From: Nanobdellota archaeon
GTDB lineage: Archaea; Nanobdellota; Nanobdellia; Pacearchaeales; GW2011-AR1
Assembly: GCA_038046005.1 (NCBI GenBank)
Contig: JBBSXB010000001.1
Location: 64,001-128,000, forward strand
Direction of reading: 5' to 3'
Length of the DNA: 64,000 bases
Position numbers and translations under genes: made by a program. The notes under the pieces are model-generated. The model was not told the origin of the DNA. It did no database searches and saw nothing but the letters and a program-made list of their open reading frames with translations. Of the stretch, positions 58,087 to 64,000 are shown piece after piece. Positions within the stretch are counted from its first letter, which is position 1, and each line of letters begins with the position of its first letter.

Positions 58087-58866
58087 TCAATCTTTTATTT
58101 TATTTATTCCCAGCGTTTCAAATTTATTCTGGACATGATTAAACAGCGTCGAGGAAATCAAAGGTTGATGCACTCCGGGATGTGTTTGATTATCAAATTT
58201 TACTTTTCCCAAATAAGCCTGATTAGTGAGAATTTTCTTTAGGCCGTTTACAGAAAAACCATATTTTTTTGACAGCTGTGTTAAACTTATTTTCTGGTTT
58301 AAAAAATCTTGGAATACTTCATTGACAAGGTAAGAATTTTCTGCTGGAATAAGTTTTTTATCGACCATTTTATAGCCAAATGGTGCCCTCGTTATTGGAT
58401 TTCCATCACGGGCTTTTTTATCCATACTGAACTTTGTTCTTTCCCCAGTAACATTTCTTTCAAATTCTGCAAAAGCAGATATTATATGAAACATTAACTT
58501 TCCTGAAGCGCTTGTTGTTTCAATTTTGTCCTGCAAAGATATGAAATCAACACCCCATTGTTTTAGTTTTTCTATGGTTTCTATTAAATCTCGCAAAGAA
58601 CGGGAAAATCTATCAAGTTTGTATACGAAAATTGCCTGGAATTTGTGATTTCTCGCATCTTCAAGTAACTCAACTATTTCTGGCCTACCTTTGATATCTT
58701 TGGCAGACTTACCTTCGTCTTTGTATATTCTTAGAACTTCGTAACCTAAAGCAGAAGCATAGTTTTTAAGTGCTTCTTCTTGTGCCGACATCGAAATTCC
58801 ATGCTTGACTTGTTCTTCTGTTGAGACTCTTATGTAAATTGCTGCTAGGGGTTTTATTTGATTCAT
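58087..58866 (-). CDS. serine recombinase (catalytic domain plus recombinase domain, no zinc ribbon)
   Basis: YIRVSTEEQ, DEGKSA, RP, KLDRFSR, FAEFER, APFGY, ILTNQAYLG, HQPLIS. Probable start MNQIK at 58866 (ATGA overlap with the upstream gene), 259 aa. Confidence 0.93.
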   Translation of the reverse strand: MNQIKPLAAIYIRVSTEEQVKHGISMSAQEEALKNYASALGYEVLRIYKDEGKSAKDIKGRPEIVELLEDARNHKFQAIFVYKLDRFSRSLRDLIETIEKLKQWGVDFISLQDKIETTSASGKLMFHIISAFAEFERNVTGERTKFSMDKKARDGNPITRAPFGYKMVDKKLIPAENSYLVNEVFQDFLNQKISLTQLSKKYGFSVNGLKKILTNQAYLGKVKFDNQTHPGVHQPLISSTLFNHVQNKFETLGINKIKD

Positions 58867-59513
58867 GCTTTCACGCCTATCAAAACCGTCCAAACAGGAC
58901 CAACAGATTTAATTTTCAGGTCTTGGCAATAATTTGAAAGAAGAACCTTAATGTTAGTTAAGTCTACTCTATCAAATGAAGCTTTGTCTAAGACAGTTTT
59001 GTCTTCCTTTATAGACATAACCTTAAAGCCCAAGTAGGAATAATATTTTCTTAAAAAGGTTGTTGTTCTTTTGTCTCTTTTCCAAGTGAATATCAAAATT
59101 GTGCCTCCTCTTTTTGTTACTCTTAAAATTTCTCTTAATAGTTTCTCTTTGGAATCAATGCTTCCAATGAGATTATAAGCCGCATAAGTTACGTCAAAAA
59201 AATTGTCTGGAAAAGTCATGTTGAAAGCATCCATGTTTAAAATCTCAACATTAGGAGAGTTTGCAAGATTTTTTCGAGCAATTTTTAATACTGATTCGTT
59301 ATTATCTATGCCAACAAGTTTTTTCACGAACTGAAACAACTTGTCTGCAGGTCTACCTGTCCCACAACCAACATCTAGGACAACTTTGTTTTGGCATATT
59401 TTTTTTAAAAGGTTGAACTCATATTTGAATGACTCTTTAGCCTCCTTTAATGGTTTTTCTACTGCTTTTACTTGCTCTCTGACATACTCTTGACCATAAT
59501 CTCTCTTTTCCAC
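58863..59513 (-). CDS. class I SAM methyltransferase (UbiE/Methyltransf_11-like)
   Basis: VLDVGCGTG, GID, FPDNFFDV, RVTKRGG. Confidence 0.87.
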   Translation of the reverse strand: MEKRDYGQEYVREQVKAVEKPLKEAKESFKYEFNLLKKICQNKVVLDVGCGTGRPADKLFQFVKKLVGIDNNESVLKIARKNLANSPNVEILNMDAFNMTFPDNFFDVTYAAYNLIGSIDSKEKLLREILRVTKRGGTILIFTWKRDKRTTTFLRKYYSYLGFKVMSIKEDKTVLDKASFDRVDLTNIKVLLSNYCQDLKIKSVGPVWTVLIGVKA

Positions 59514-60516: not shown

Positions 60517-60549
60517 CCTGCCACAGTTGTGCACTTAGGTTGGCTAAGT
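60517..60549. repeat. 33-bp palindromic repeat, copy 3
   Basis: CCTGCCACAGTTGTGCACTTAGGTTGGCTAAGT, 31/33 identical to 60051-60083. Confidence 0.9.
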
Positions 60550-60581: not shown

Positions 60582-60710
60582 GGTTGTTTAAACATGTGTT
60601 TTTGTGTTTAATCGACGGAAAAATTGATTAGAAATCGCTAAGAAAAACAGGTGTTGATTAGGGTGTTTGTCCGTTTAAACAGTGTTTATGGTTGTTTTAA
60701 ACAGCTGTTT
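60582..60710. repeat. cluster of TGTTT/AAACA (GTTTAAACA-type) motifs
   Basis: TGTTTAAACA at 60585, AAAACAGGTGTT near 60643, GTTTAAACAG at 60673, TGTTTTAAACAGCTGTTT at 60693. Confidence 0.65.
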
Positions 60711-60878
60711 TGCCATTAAAAATAGGGAAAAACATCATATTTTAAGACAAAAACATGCTAAAAAATAAATGAATTTCCCTCCAAAAAATTGGGTGCGAGA
60801 TAGATAAAAATTGAGGTAAGATGAAATTTACGACGTAAAAAAAGAAATATTTATAAAGGTTGAAAATCTAAATTGAGT

Positions 60879-61511
60879 ATGTTTGATTGGTTCTTTAAAA
60901 AAAGAGAGAAAAAAGAGTTAAAACACATAGAAGAAGATACAAAAAAGGGTTTTGAAAGTGTCAAAAAAGATATAACAGCTGTAATAGGATGGATCAAACA
61001 CCTAGATTCTGAGAAAAATCTGCAACAAAAAGAGATTGAAGACATAAAAGAGGATTTGTCGACGGTAAAAAATGACATTGAAAGCATTAAAAATATCATA
61101 ACTATGATGAATGAATTAAAACCTCAAGGAGTGTTTAAAACAAACAGACAGGTGTTTAAAGAACAAACACCTGTTTATGCTGTTCAAACAGTTGACCAAA
61201 CAGGCGTTCAAACACCAAATTTAAACCAATTTTCAGTAACTGAAAGAGCAATTCTATGGATTCTCTTAAACTCAGAAATGAAACTGGGATATGAAGATCT
61301 AGCTGCAATGTTGGGAAAAGAAAAGTCCACCATAAGGGGGCAGATAAATAGTATAAAACAAAAAAGTGAAAATTTGATAAGTGAAATTACTGAAAAAAAT
61401 GGAAAAAAGAGAGTATATATAAGTGAAGAAATGAGGGAAAAAATGCTGAAAAAGTCAAAAGTGAGAGTTGGAAATAAGAAAAAAACTGAGAAAAAAGAAG
61501 AAAAAGTCTGA
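60879..61511 (+). CDS. coiled-coil plus C-terminal winged-HTH protein
   Basis: KKGFESVKKDI, heptad region, Q/T linker, FSVTERAILWILL...YEDLAAMLGKEKSTIRGQINSIK; TATA-like box at 60850. Confidence 0.8.
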   Translation: MFDWFFKKREKKELKHIEEDTKKGFESVKKDITAVIGWIKHLDSEKNLQQKEIEDIKEDLSTVKNDIESIKNIITMMNELKPQGVFKTNRQVFKEQTPVYAVQTVDQTGVQTPNLNQFSVTERAILWILLNSEMKLGYEDLAAMLGKEKSTIRGQINSIKQKSENLISEITEKNGKKRVYISEEMREKMLKKSKVRVGNKKKTEKKEEKV

Positions 61512-61712
61512 AAAGTAAGGAAAAATCAATAAAAAACGATTAAAAAAACAAAAAGTGAGAGTTAAATTACAAGAAAAACAATAAAAAATAAATTACTAAG
61601 TGAAAAGTGAGATGAAAAAATAAAAATGAATTTAAAAAGATTACAAAAGTCTGAAAATGAGAGATACAATAAATGGTAAAAACATAGTTAAAAATAGAAA
61701 AATGAGAGAAAA
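61457..61712 (+). repeat. A-rich tract with AAAA(G)TGAGA / AAAAGTCTGAAAA repeats
   Basis: AAAAGTGAGA at ~61457, ~61551 and ~61603; AAAAGTCTGAAAA at ~61502 and ~61645; AAAATGAGAG at ~61654 and ~61699. Confidence 0.65.
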
Positions 61713-61853
61713 ATAAACTTTGAAAAATTGGACTAACTTGAAAAATTAAAAAATAGGCTTTTTAGGGGCTAAAAAGACAAAATTTATAGGTATGAAAAAA
61801 TAAACAAGAAGAAAATGTTCTATTAGAAATTGTTTTGTTGAACGAATAACTAT

Positions 61854-62585
61854 TTACAATTCTCTAAGTTTTAATATTGTTTGAAGGGAGGCAATTTTCT
61901 TTAAGCCGGCTGAAACGTTTAAATGGACATTCTTATTGTTAAGTTTGATTTTATCGACGGGAATTCCCTTTGAGATGATCTTACTGATATAATCTCTTAT
62001 GGAGCTTTCAGTAAGGTTAAGCTTCAGGGCAATGGCCTTATAATCAGCATATCCTTGCTCTTCCTCTAGCTGGTATAATGTTGAAAATACTAAAATTTCC
62101 TTTTCTGTAAGCTTCTTGAATTTCAGCCTTATTTCTTTTTTTAAGGTATCTAAAGATTCAAGTATTTTGGAGGCATCGTGAAGGGTAGTTTTGGGAATCT
62201 CTAAAGGAAAAATCAAGCTATTTTGTGTCTGTTGGTCTGTCTGTTGGTCTGTCTGTCTGTCTGCTGGAACCCCATCATTTCCTATGGAAATAGCTTGATT
62301 TTGGGGTTTTAAAGCCTTAAAAGACTCATTATCTGCTGGGCTTTGTGTTGAGGTTGTCTTATTCTCCAAACTATGTGATGGAGTTAAAAAAGTTGAATTT
62401 TGAAGTATTTTAGAAGAAATAGAAATTAATTCCCTGTTTAAATCCTTTAACTCTCTAACCTCTTCCCCTAAATTGGAAAGTTTCCAATTCAACTCCACTA
62501 GGTTGGTTTTTAGAGAATTTAACTCGTAACTAAGAGAAGAGATGTCTTGTTTAACTTTTTGAAAGGCCTCTTTTATCTCATCCAT
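61854..62585 (-). CDS. coiled-coil plus C-terminal winged-HTH protein (similar layout to 60879)
   Basis: IKEAFQKVKQDI, coiled coil, DRQTDQQTDQQT linker, LTEKEILVFSTLY...YKAIALKLNLTESSIRDYISKI. Confidence 0.8.
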   Translation of the reverse strand: MDEIKEAFQKVKQDISSLSYELNSLKTNLVELNWKLSNLGEEVRELKDLNRELISISSKILQNSTFLTPSHSLENKTTSTQSPADNESFKALKPQNQAISIGNDGVPADRQTDQQTDQQTQNSLIFPLEIPKTTLHDASKILESLDTLKKEIRLKFKKLTEKEILVFSTLYQLEEEQGYADYKAIALKLNLTESSIRDYISKIISKGIPVDKIKLNNKNVHLNVSAGLKKIASLQTILKLREL

Positions 62586-62634: not shown

Positions 62635-62913
62635 TTAAAAATTTTGAGGTTGACTTTTTTTATAGGAGGAATAAGCTTCATCGCTTAATTTCCACCGGGA
62701 TCTTCTTAGATAGACTTTTCCGAGTGGATTTTTGTTTACCTCTACAATAAGTTTCTTGGCTTTCAGATCCTTGAGAAGTCTTTTAACAAATTCCTCATCC
62801 CGAGCTATTTCTCTTGCTACATAATACGTAAACATAGGTTGGGGTGAAACAGAATAGAGAAAAGCTAGAATCTGTTCGCATATCTTCTGCTTTTTCTCTT
62901 TTGATATGTACAT
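62635..62913 (-). CDS. small winged-HTH protein
   Basis: EQILAFLY...FTYYVAREIARDEEFVKRLLKDL...RSRWKL; probable ATG at 62913 with a TATA-like box ~25 nt upstream. Confidence 0.7.
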   Translation of the reverse strand: MYISKEKKQKICEQILAFLYSVSPQPMFTYYVAREIARDEEFVKRLLKDLKAKKLIVEVNKNPLGKVYLRRSRWKLSDEAYSSYKKSQPQNF

Positions 62914-62971
62914 TAAAGGAAAAATAAAAGGGTTTATATAAAGGTTTTTGAAAGAAAGATTATTATGGGGG

Positions 62972-63388
62972 TTAATTCTCAATCTCGTCCTTTTTTAAAG
63001 AAGGTAATTGAATATGGAGGGGTATGCCCAGCTCTTCTTCTAATTGAAGCGCCTTGAGGGTCGATTTCCTTAAAATAGAGTTAAGGATAAAGAGATTGAA
63101 GGCTTCTGGAGCATTTTTATCCTTCCATGTACTCAACACTTCTTTGGATATTTTAGGGTCAACAGAAACAAGAGTATTTCCCTCAAAAAAGATCTTGGCG
63201 AAGTCCGGTTCATAATTAAGAGAAAAACTGAATTTCAAGTTCAAAAGAGATTCTTTAGAGTTAAATATATCTGCCTTAGCTTCACTGATATCGAGTATAT
63301 CCATTTTGGTGTTTATATTTACACCTTTAAAGTTGGTGGAATTTCGTTCCGCGTTTATCCTTGTAAAATTAAATCCTAAGAGTTTCAT
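62972..63388 (-). CDS. archaeal hypothetical protein (possible SecB-like fold)
   Basis: Alternating beta pattern (GFNFTRINAER, LKFSFSLNY, IFFEG) followed by a helix and GIPLHIQLP; the fold is inferred only. Confidence 0.6.
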   Translation of the reverse strand: MKLLGFNFTRINAERNSTNFKGVNINTKMDILDISEAKADIFNSKESLLNLKFSFSLNYEPDFAKIFFEGNTLVSVDPKISKEVLSTWKDKNAPEAFNLFILNSILRKSTLKALQLEEELGIPLHIQLPSLKKDEIEN

Positions 63389-63427: not shown

Positions 63428-63697
63428 CTAAATTAAGTCTTCCTCAGATACTATAACAAAATCGCCTATGGCGATTATAGCACTATAAGGGACTAATAAG
63501 TCATTTGAAGAAGTTTTTTCAAGATTTAAGTTCCTCGTGTAAGGTGTTGCATCTTTAACAACTAAACTGATAAGCTCACCAGATCTAGTCTCAAAGGTAA
63601 CATCTTTGACAAAACCAAGTCTTTTACCCTCTTTCGTGACAATCATCTTGCCTAAAAGCGCACTAAATGGATTTTTATTGTCTTGCATGTTAAGCAT
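63428..63697 (-). CDS. PRC-barrel domain protein (CdpB-like)
   Basis: LLGKMIVTKEGKRLGFVKDVTFETRSGEL...VPYSAIIAIGDFVIV. Confidence 0.88.
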   Translation of the reverse strand: MLNMQDNKNPFSALLGKMIVTKEGKRLGFVKDVTFETRSGELISLVVKDATPYTRNLNLEKTSSNDLLVPYSAIIAIGDFVIVSEEDLI

Positions 63698-63825
63698 AGA
63701 AGAGATTTGTTTATAAATTTTTCTGTACCAACAAATAGATTTGAAAGAATATAGATAACTGGATTAATGGAAGATAATAACGAGCAGACACACTCCTTGA
63801 TTTCGTTTGGAAAAGATTTATAAAG

Positions 63826-63950
63826 GATTTTTTAATTTTTTTTGTTTTTGTTTTATTTATAAATTTTTCTATAATAATATAATATAATATAATATAATTA
63901 ACTTATCTTGAATTATTATTATTATTATTATTATTATTAATTTGTATTAA
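63826..63950. repeat. extremely AT-rich tract with (AATAT)n and (ATT)n tandem repeats
   Basis: T-runs, then ataataatataatataatataatataatt and aattattattattattattattattattaa. Confidence 0.8.
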
Positions 63951-64000
63951 GCCGCTAATTTTATTGTGGGATTTAAAAGAACAAAATGCTAATCTGGAGT

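Follow-up and report, generated by a model that had tools for sequence, protein, structure and literature searches.

Two convergent genes near the probable replication origin of a Nanobdellota archaeon (Pacearchaeales, GW2011-AR1) carry, in the parts of their coding sequences that encode disordered linkers, DNA elements that are conserved down to the synonymous sites, and one of these elements matches the origin recognition box (ORB) of archaea. The genes, which we call A and B, lie toward the end of a 64,000-nucleotide stretch that we refer to as the window (positions 64,001 to 128,000 of contig JBBSXB010000001.1, assembly GCA_038046005.1; G000:C1:64001-128000 in our numbering, in which contig C1 measures 171 kb and the whole genome 875 kb). 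Positions are those of the window unless a contig is named. An earlier note, made from the letters of the window alone, had described two convergent genes with a shared layout and three classes of repeat, and recomputation on the window confirmed that observation. We propose, at what we judge to be an even chance of being right, that A and B constitute an origin-linked accessory module, a pair of coiled-coil and winged-helix proteins whose genes double as carriers of cis-acting sites. The features most directly concerned are the following.

60879-61511, plus strand: gene A, 210 amino acids (aa); coiled coil, disordered linker, winged helix
61128-61235, plus strand: palindrome/repeat array within codons 84-119 of A (its linker), type (G)TTCAAACAGGT / AAACAGSTGTT
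61854-62585, minus strand: gene B, 243 aa; coiled coil, disordered linker, winged helix
62269-62291, minus strand: full ORB (dyad plus G-string), B codons 99-106 (ISIGNDGV)
62227-62268, minus strand: short tandem repeat (CAGA/GACA; GTCT/CAGA type) directly after the ORB, translated as DRQT/DQQT

Selection on the DNA of the two linkers

For counts at the DNA level we used a set of close loci, the best 80 of 170 confirmed genomic relatives of A and 81 loci in all (1.04 Mb). Of the 81 genes of each kind, 64 A and 63 B genes entered codon alignments, the rest having been dropped by the anchor-based start finder. The linker of B is written almost throughout in fixed codons: TCC in 63/63 sequences, GGA in 60/60, GGG in 62/63, GTT in 59/59, GAC in 60/60, CAG in 62/63 and ACA in 63/63. 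TCC makes up 11% of serine codons overall, yet it fills this linker site in every sequence. The linker of A behaves alike, with CAA at Q103, Q107 and Q111 (64/64, 63/63 and 63/63), GTT in 62/64 and TTA in 56/58 at L115. Equally conserved residues of the B winged helix take their codons at expectation, and non-linker columns of A show a modest excess. Over conserved degenerate columns the mean excess codon identity in B is 0.50 in the linker against 0.04 elsewhere (p 1.5e-9), and in A 0.37 in the linker (23 columns) against 0.14 elsewhere (107 columns; p 1.8e-7).

Because the synonymous sites are fixed and the elements are also found in alternative reading frames, selection on the peptide and chance can both be excluded. 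Judged by their codons, the "Q/T-rich linkers" are DNA elements in translated form, kept constant because their DNA has a function. A role in DNA is favored over one in RNA because the motifs recur upstream of the TATA-like box of A and upstream of orc1, and because dyads suit dimeric proteins; the embedded elements are very probably protein-binding DNA sites, as predicted from these patterns.

Two other sources of linker conservation were considered and rejected. Chance low-complexity sequence or codon bias fails on the fixed codons and on the ORB counts against controls given below, and an overlapping open reading frame (ORF) opposite B fails in that none of at least 40 aa is present. Separately, we observed that contig breaks in four public DNA runs fall at 61154-61250, 62230-62295 and 63824, and that summed contig depth goes up over 61126-61246, the A linker, in four of four runs, roughly two- to five-fold in three (in X1, 292.6 against about 157). 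This rise would fit co-occurring relatives that share this DNA, and we do not count it as evidence.

An origin recognition box inside gene B

Read on the strand of B, the element consists of the dyad TCCA..GGAAA, a short spacer and GGGGT. It matches two ORB forms in the published sources, the common archaeal motif given for Ori-Finder 2 (PMC4164010) and the euryarchaeal consensus as quoted by Norais et al. (PMC1868953). At 62269-62288 (minus strand) the box has 3 mismatches to the 20-nt common motif as given in PMC4164010, which makes it joint-best in its own genome, where the motif occurs eight times at up to 4 mismatches; two of the eight are the boxes just upstream of orc1. The 63 close B genes have best matches with 0 (7 genes), 1 (23), 2 (23), 3 (8) or 4 mismatches (2), so that 61 lie at 3 or fewer. 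Among 65 distinct full-length B genes from distant genomes the corresponding numbers are 0 (9), 1 (17), 2 (22), 3 (10), 4 (6) and 6 (1), with 58 at 3 or fewer and 26 of the 65 at zero or one. By comparison, 293 control ORFs of 150-330 aa from the same loci mostly show 6-8 mismatches. Only two of these reach 3 or fewer, and both are antisense ORFs over one B gene that was fetched twice (L096 = L131), which leaves 0 independent control matches.

The distant B genes that bear the box span 16 family codes by our tally. Across the close loci, 158 of the 169 ORB matches with 4 mismatches or fewer belong to B, to the intergenic region between the PRC-barrel gene and orc1 (the PRC-orc1 region) or to the stretch upstream of A, and ACAGACAGAC was found solely inside B. 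Of the 58 distant B genes with the box, 52 translate it as SS[TI]GNEGV and 6 in another frame, as VP.E.KG. We also observed that in L117 and L118, which belong to the archaeon's own family, the best ORB copy is not translated in the usual frame, which is used instead by a second, degenerate copy about 40 nt further on. Measured against the layout of intergenic ORBs, which adjoin orc1 and stand as inverted copies around an AT-rich element, the box in B differs in being intragenic and, in distant loci, solitary.

A tandem repeat always follows the box, but its unit varies by lineage (CAGA, CATT, CAAT, CAAA, CACT, CACG and longer units) and the encoded peptides differ accordingly (DRQT, HSFI, QSIN, NKQT, HSLT and others). 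A tetranucleotide repeat in coding sequence is also a mark of phase-variable contingency genes, whose tracts vary in length within populations and give out-of-frame variants. Here, within the close family, the codons of the tract are conserved and the genes open; public contigs break at 62231-62268.

Repeats of gene A and of the spacer

The three repeat classes placed by the earlier note upstream of, within and between the genes are all present, and they are conserved in orthologous loci, with TGTTTAAACA in 65 of 81 regions upstream of A and AAAGTGAG in 60 of 79 spacers among the close loci. The elements are these.

60585-60710, no strand: upstream palindromic array, comprising TGTTTAAACA (60585-60594), AAACAGGTGTT (60645-60655), GTTTAAAC (60673-60680) and AAACAGCTGTT (60699-60709)
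60607-60621, plus strand: TTATCGACGG-type motif, upstream copy, repeat family D20
60773-60805, plus strand: degenerate ORB-like element upstream of A, weak, aligned by eye with ORB-like elements at -115 to -134 in some relatives
60830-60859, plus strand: probable promoter of A, with a TATA-like box rich in A/T some 20-30 bp ahead of the ATG and a CGACG motif preceding that box
61056-61070, plus strand: TTGTCGACGG copy inside A, codons 60-64, positional peak at +100
61458-61709, plus strand: five AAAGTGAGAG-type direct repeats, one in the last codons of A (KVRV) and four in the spacer
61512-61853, no strand: A-rich spacer between the convergent genes, with a conserved GAATAAC-type element at 61844-61853 just after the B stop
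61949-61963, plus strand: TTTTATCGACGGG copy inside B, codons 208-212, on the strand opposite to the gene, repeat family D20

An 11-nt family occurs upstream of and within A, at 60590, 60645, 60699, 61146 and 61198. With up to one mismatch AAACAGSTGTT is found 14 times in the window against 4.0 +/- 2.4 in shuffled sequences, none of 100 shuffles reaching 14, and 8 of the 14 fall within the 0.6 kb of 60590-61208. Over the close loci this palindrome class is confined almost wholly to -300 to -100 and +200 to +400 of A, and the upstream copy of the array belongs to the close family only. The linker of A amounts to an array of 10-12 bp dyads, here of the AAACAG-CTGTTT / GTTCAAACAGGT type. Many other families use GTCCAAACAGCT instead, one gene reading it both as SKQ/KQLS and as VQT/QTAV, and still more distant lineages use GTTCATGAAC or GGACATGTCC. 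Whatever the motif, an 8-mer is present at least 4 times in 26 of 41 A-type genes, compared with 15 of 275 control ORFs.

Outside the linkers, too, embedded copies go with rare codons. The rare serine codon TCG stands in 55/57 sequences at A codon 61 and in 36 of 44 serine-bearing sequences at codon 62, and at B codons 208-212 rare codons are likewise preferred (CCC 44/57, GTC 39/43). Relative to A, TATCGWCG peaks at -300 in 41 loci, at -100 in 16 and at +100 in 50. ORB-like elements precede A in 5 of 77 loci by the published motif at up to 4 mismatches and in 11 of 81 by a loose pattern. The arrangement of the probable promoter is conserved upstream in relatives. Because the motifs are nearly restricted to this locus in the archaeon's own genome, neither A nor B resembles a global regulator.

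Two further elements upstream of A were observed. One, of the GTGCACTWAGG type (60529-60549), gives 82 matches in the 81 close loci, all on the same strand and in 33 loci at -300 to -400 of A. Rfam gave no match for it; it might mark where an RNA missing from the annotation ends, or be one more site for a protein. The other, ATGTGCTGGAA (TTCCAGCACAT on the opposite strand), flanks the palindrome block in 2-4 copies in L005-L009, L018, L022, L027 and L030, with 50 matches in total, mostly at -400 to -100 of A, and is kept in the archaeon's own genome as degenerate copies only.

The AAAGTGAGAG-type copies start at 61458, 61552, 61604, 61655 and 61700. At 2 mismatches the motif is not enriched in the window (15 found, 14 expected), and its weight comes from conservation in other genomes: repeats of this type stand on one strand alone and are retained beside the B stop codon even in distant lineages. 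AAGTGAGA occurs on a single strand only, at +400 to +800 of A in the close loci. The spacer itself measures 61-590 bp in close relatives and 0-385 bp in distant ones, with 0-90 bp in many lineages. As side observations, many relatives (L003-L082) have an inverted repeat, AGTTATTCG-N5-CGAATAACT, just after the B stop (window 61839-61853), of which the window's own copy has one arm only and which might act as a terminator hairpin or as a further dyad site, and the 8-mer AGTTATTC is found in 43 of 79 spacers.

The proteins encoded by A and B

The start of A is listed as a TTG at 60873 among the predicted ORFs; the ATG at 60879 agrees with all homologues. ORF calls and sequence bore out that A and B converge across 342 bp, and alignments and AlphaFold models did the same for the common layout of N-terminal motif, coiled coil, linker and C-terminal winged helix-turn-helix (wHTH). 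In the F..VK.DI motif, F25, V28, K30 and D31 of A and F7, V10 and D13 of B are invariant. A BLASTP comparison of A with B is not significant (E 0.14), while hhalign pairs motif and coiled coil over 49 columns at a probability of 78% (E 1.8e-5), and several distant ORFs match the profiles of both proteins alike. Because of this N-terminal alignment and these shared matches, we take A and B to be distant paralogues.

Alignment-based AlphaFold models give A a helix at 2-79, a segment at 84-112 with a predicted local distance difference test (pLDDT) score below 50, and a winged helix at 120-190; B has a helix at 2-62, pLDDT below 50 at 64-89 and 94-134, and a winged helix at 135-241. The embedded DNA elements (A codons 84-119, B codons 99-120) map to the low-scoring segments. 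Foldseek places the C-terminal domain of A among MarR, ArsR and Lrs14 (AbfR2) regulators (E 2e-4 to 4e-3), with a template modeling (TM) score of 0.54 by target to AbfR2 (6cmv). Long helices together with a MarR/Lrs14-like winged helix would fit dimeric DNA binders. No Pfam or NCBIfam family reaches its cut-off in either protein, and weak HTH matches are confined to the C-terminal thirds: the best Pfam scores are 19.4 bits for HTH_36 and 15-19 bits for HTH_11 (cut-off 25 for each), and the profile matches to Sta1 and Lrs14 are weak (NCBIfam Sta1, 18.8 bits against a cut-off of 80). These profiles also reveal no AAA+ ATPase domain in A or B. Profile searches of PDB sequences returned weak HTH or coiled-coil matches only, relatives in the protein atlas are unnamed Nanobdellota clusters only, and among PHROGs no meaningful phage family appeared, none being above threshold. 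A complex prediction for A 1-82 with B 1-62 scored 0.11 (mark 0.32), which counts neither way on binding.

orc1 and the probable origin

The sole Cdc6_C match of the genome belongs to a gene for an Orc1/Cdc6 protein of 403 aa (C1:128309-129520), which lies about 300 bp past the window end and 1.7 kb from the A/B locus. Downstream of it follow a 516-aa metallophosphoesterase, which we take to be the small subunit of PolD, a nucleotidase of the NT5C type and the large subunit of PolD. The region before it holds the following.

63698-64000, on to about 64308 (C1:128308), no strand: left half of the probable oriC, a 611-bp stretch between the PRC-barrel gene and orc1 that straddles the window end
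63786-63814, minus strand: ORB-like element in the PRC-orc1 region
63870-63949, no strand: AT-rich unwinding element, an 80-bp duplex less stable than any other in the 875-kb genome
window-equivalent 64173 and 64271 (C1:128173 and C1:128271), plus strand: two ORBs (ORB motif) just before orc1

The region also holds (ATA)n/(ATT)n tracts, and its ORBs recur in 43 of 56 loci, with 51 plus-strand and 23 minus-strand matches. Because the least stable duplex lies there, flanked by ORBs of both orientations, the PRC-orc1 region is the more likely origin, and the unwinding site most likely falls within it, about 1.1 kb beyond B. The duplex instability of the A-B spacer reaches only the 99.6th percentile, and the A/B locus is probably not itself the origin.

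Gene order and distribution

Gene order is constant across the close loci, absences being mostly contig ends: A is followed on the opposite strand by B, a gene with the shorthand w115 or "wHTH", a gene without known family and a PRC-barrel gene, and then by orc1, on the strand of A, and PolD. B converges on A in 78 of 80 loci; the three genes listed next are each present in 69 of 80; orc1 is found in 55, the putative PolD small subunit in 54 and the PolD large subunit in 51 of the 80.

62635-62982, minus strand: 115-aa protein ("wHTH"), its only Pfam match being Crp-family at E 0.12, below cut-off
62972-63388, minus strand: 138-aa protein without family, between B and the PRC-barrel gene
63428-63697, minus strand: 89-aa PRC-barrel protein (PRC, E 2.2e-9)

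The 115-aa and 138-aa proteins are an observation in their own right: both are small, conserved and family-less in Pfam and NCBIfam, and in 69 of 80 loci their genes separate B from the PRC-barrel gene. Recombinase genes also occur nearby. A serine recombinase gene (58087-58893, minus strand; Resolvase E 1.4e-42) is found within 8 kb upstream of A in 51 of 80 close loci, and in two distant lineages a Xer-like tyrosine recombinase gene (Phage_integrase E 1e-46; L089 5835-6644 and L084 4097-4924) ends about 30-55 bp before A.

Beyond the close loci, database searches at E <= 0.001 returned 2640 relatives of A and 1771 of B, in records of Nanoarchaeota, Woesearchaeota and Pacearchaeota. Among 301 sampled genomes from the phylum, A is present in 49 (11 of 12 in the archaeon's own family) and B in 108, or 106 of 299 without G242 and G243, which are flagged as unpublished and on which no other result depends. 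Distant families, in which A is 24-45% identical, keep the tail-to-tail pair in 38 of 39 locus records, 10 of them repeat fetches of loci already present; in the sole exception A and B overlap by 10 nt. Four distant genomes each gave a single Cdc6_C match, 6-15 kb from the A/B pair.

A proposed accessory module and its alternatives

How might these parts work together? Orc1 probably binds the box inside B, to judge by the match, and coiled-coil dimers of A and B would bind the arrays in and around their own genes; that A and/or B bind these arrays is a prediction we regard as evenly balanced. An accessory nucleoprotein complex could then form 1-2 kb from the oriC unwinding site in the intergenic region between the PRC-barrel gene and orc1, where it might tune initiation by holding or delivering Orc1 and meanwhile throttle transcription of A and B. 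For replication control as the purpose, and not plain autoregulation or segregation, we put the chance slightly below even. We speculate more tentatively still that the locus is a chromosomal archaeal counterpart of "ori-lambda inside gene O", an ancient two-gene module of a large part of the Nanobdellota (DPANN) that would bear assembly sites for Orc1 and for A and B, with linker peptides as mere by-products, and that would represent either a captured replicon turned licensing or timing switch or a second, non-canonical helicase-loading site.

Several findings weigh against an accessory module at the origin. In distant genomes the ORB in B has no other ORB within +/-5 kb and the repeats upstream of A are missing, and therefore an accessory role beside oriC is less obvious there. 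Fifteen short B-like ORFs (169-207 aa) have neither linker nor ORB, and A is spread more narrowly than B (49 against 108 of the 301 sampled genomes). The residue after the conserved arginine of the putative recognition helix of B varies together with the unit of the tandem repeat (D with GACA, T with CATT, S, G or A with CAAT, H with CAAA), but in an underpowered test this covariation is not significant, the tree giving 1-2 independent pairs on supported branches, and is inseparable from shared ancestry. Finally, GC skew is positive throughout the 171-kb contig, with no inflection of GC or AT skew, and hence gives no independent origin signal here.

The earlier note had read the locus as an initiator or origin, or else a segregation module, and this reading holds in part. 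The repeats are conserved, contrary to what the note had said would refute it, and orc1, in its only copy, is indeed nearby, and gene order and the convergent pair are kept as far as distant families. The origin proper appears to lie elsewhere, the skew inflection looked for on the contig is absent, and no ParA/SegA-type gene stands beside the locus. Because they lack an AAA+ domain, A and B are not initiators of the Orc1 kind.

The alternative that survives best, although we think it unlikely, is plain autoregulation, with A and B as MarR/Lrs14-like repressors, the repeats as their operators and the ORB-like box as an operator of B or a roadblock at which Orc1 acts as a transcription factor, and no part in replication. 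The winged-helix fold is generic, the motifs are specific to the locus and directly precede the TATA-like box of A, the ORB is solitary in distant loci, and Orc1 paralogues can regulate transcription in Sulfolobales (PMC6061795). But a box that fits the pan-archaeal ORB, G-string included, at zero or one mismatch in 26 of 65 distant genes exceeds what an operator needs. Linkage to orc1 and oriC persists over many families, and operators kept in a coding linker over 16 family codes would be unusual.

An origin-proximal module for segregation or for coupling to division would treat the arrays as a centromere-like site held by A and B, with the PRC-barrel protein and the two unknown proteins tying it to the division machinery. 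Against it, no ParA/SegA-type ATPase gene is adjacent in the conserved array, the ParA-like (AAA_31) matches of the genome being on contigs C7 and C8 only, and a canonical Orc1 box in B is left unexplained. It is true that repeat arrays adjoin genes for DNA-binding proteins, that the operon-like run of B, the 115-aa and 138-aa genes and the PRC-barrel gene is conserved, that site-specific recombinase genes lie upstream of A and that PRC-barrel proteins function in archaeal cell division (10.1101/2023.03.28.534520). The main text of that paper, its supplementary tables apart, reports no orc1 neighborhood and never names Orc1 or Cdc6, and we consider this alternative improbable.

A little more doubtful again is the idea that the A/B locus is itself the origin, initiating in the A-rich spacer or upstream of A, with A and B as initiators. 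The least stable duplex and ORBs of both orientations lie in the PRC-orc1 region, the spacer ranks lower in instability and shrinks to 0-90 bp in many lineages, no inverted ORB partner is found near B in distant loci, skew shows no inflection, and A and B have no ATPase domain; all this outweighs a best ORB match of the genome in B, direct repeats in an A-rich spacer and ORB-like elements upstream of A in some relatives (11/81 by the loose pattern, 5/77 by the published motif).

Selection on RNA or peptide (an mRNA element with structure, a site of translational pausing or a short functional peptide such as the xQT repeats or GNEGV) is very improbable: although the peptides are conserved within the close family and the dyads could in principle form small hairpins, fixed synonymous sites exclude pure peptide selection and largely refute the peptide version, the elements are also read in other frames and their peptides fall in segments of pLDDT below 50, the motifs recur upstream of the TATA-like box of A and of orc1, and Rfam (E <= 1) gave no match in L002 1-7000.

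If an origin-linked accessory module is what A and B form, it points to an undescribed wiring of chromosome replication control. Replication control in DPANN is essentially unstudied because almost none of these archaea are cultured, and short DNA probes with three small proteins (Orc1, A and B) would allow it to be examined in vitro without culture. The linkers are also a clear natural case of dual coding, "low-complexity linkers" conserved because their DNA is a predicted binding site, which is a caution for annotation and for analyses of evolutionary rate. The signature of an ORB plus tandem repeat inside a wHTH gene could flag the origin neighborhood in fragmented metagenome bins. In the literature we found no account of an ORB in DPANN, of an ORB inside a gene or of this protein pair, though preprint supplements may hold neighborhood tables; a survey of complete Nanobdellota genomes (10.64898/2026.05.13.725050), in the part available, rotates genomes to orc1 and does not analyze the origin.

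Comparison with known systems

The locus is most readily compared with the ORBs of archaeal oriC. The box in B agrees with both the common motif and the euryarchaeal consensus, and orc1 is immediately preceded by more ORBs and an AT-rich unwinding element and followed by PolD genes. Unlike those ORBs, the best box here forms part of the reading frame of a conserved gene, and a short tandem repeat always follows it. It stands 1.6 kb away from the unwinding element, and in other families 4-15 kb away from orc1. With MarR, Lrs14 (AbfR2) and ArsR regulators A and B share the fold of the C-terminal domain, but their N-terminal coiled coil (60-80 residues) and extended disordered linker set them apart, and no cut-off for these families is reached.

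Centromere-binding modules such as ParB/parS, SegB and ParR/parC resemble the locus in having origin-proximal repeat arrays beside the gene of the presumed binder; A and B differ in lacking an adjacent partner NTPase and in having an ORB among their elements. In bacteria, initiator sites also occur away from the unwinding site, in the DnaA-box clusters outside oriC (datA, DARS) and in bipartite origins that flank dnaA. Like datA and DARS, the sites here are distant from the unwinding site and may regulate the availability of the initiator, but they belong to another initiator system, lie in coding sequence and come with DNA-binding proteins encoded on the spot.

The origin of phage lambda lies within gene O, with its iterons in the part of O that encodes the linker between its two domains, and the earlier note's comparison with it proved apt, given the codon constraint, the alternative frames and the ORB, present in 61 of the 63 close B genes and in 58 of the 65 distant ones. 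In A and B, as in O, site repeats are written in the linker-coding part of the gene of a presumed DNA-binding protein, where the peptide is tolerant and the sites shift with lineage. Unlike O, to which they have no sequence similarity and with which they share no Pfam or PHROG family above threshold, A and B lie on a cellular chromosome and divide the task between two genes, one of their elements is a site of the type used by the host initiator Orc1, and the unwinding element is probably elsewhere. Membership of that family or any other is unsupported, and by analogy we regard ori-lambda inside gene O as the closest conceptual precedent for two archaeal genes that appear to carry binding sites within their own coding sequences.

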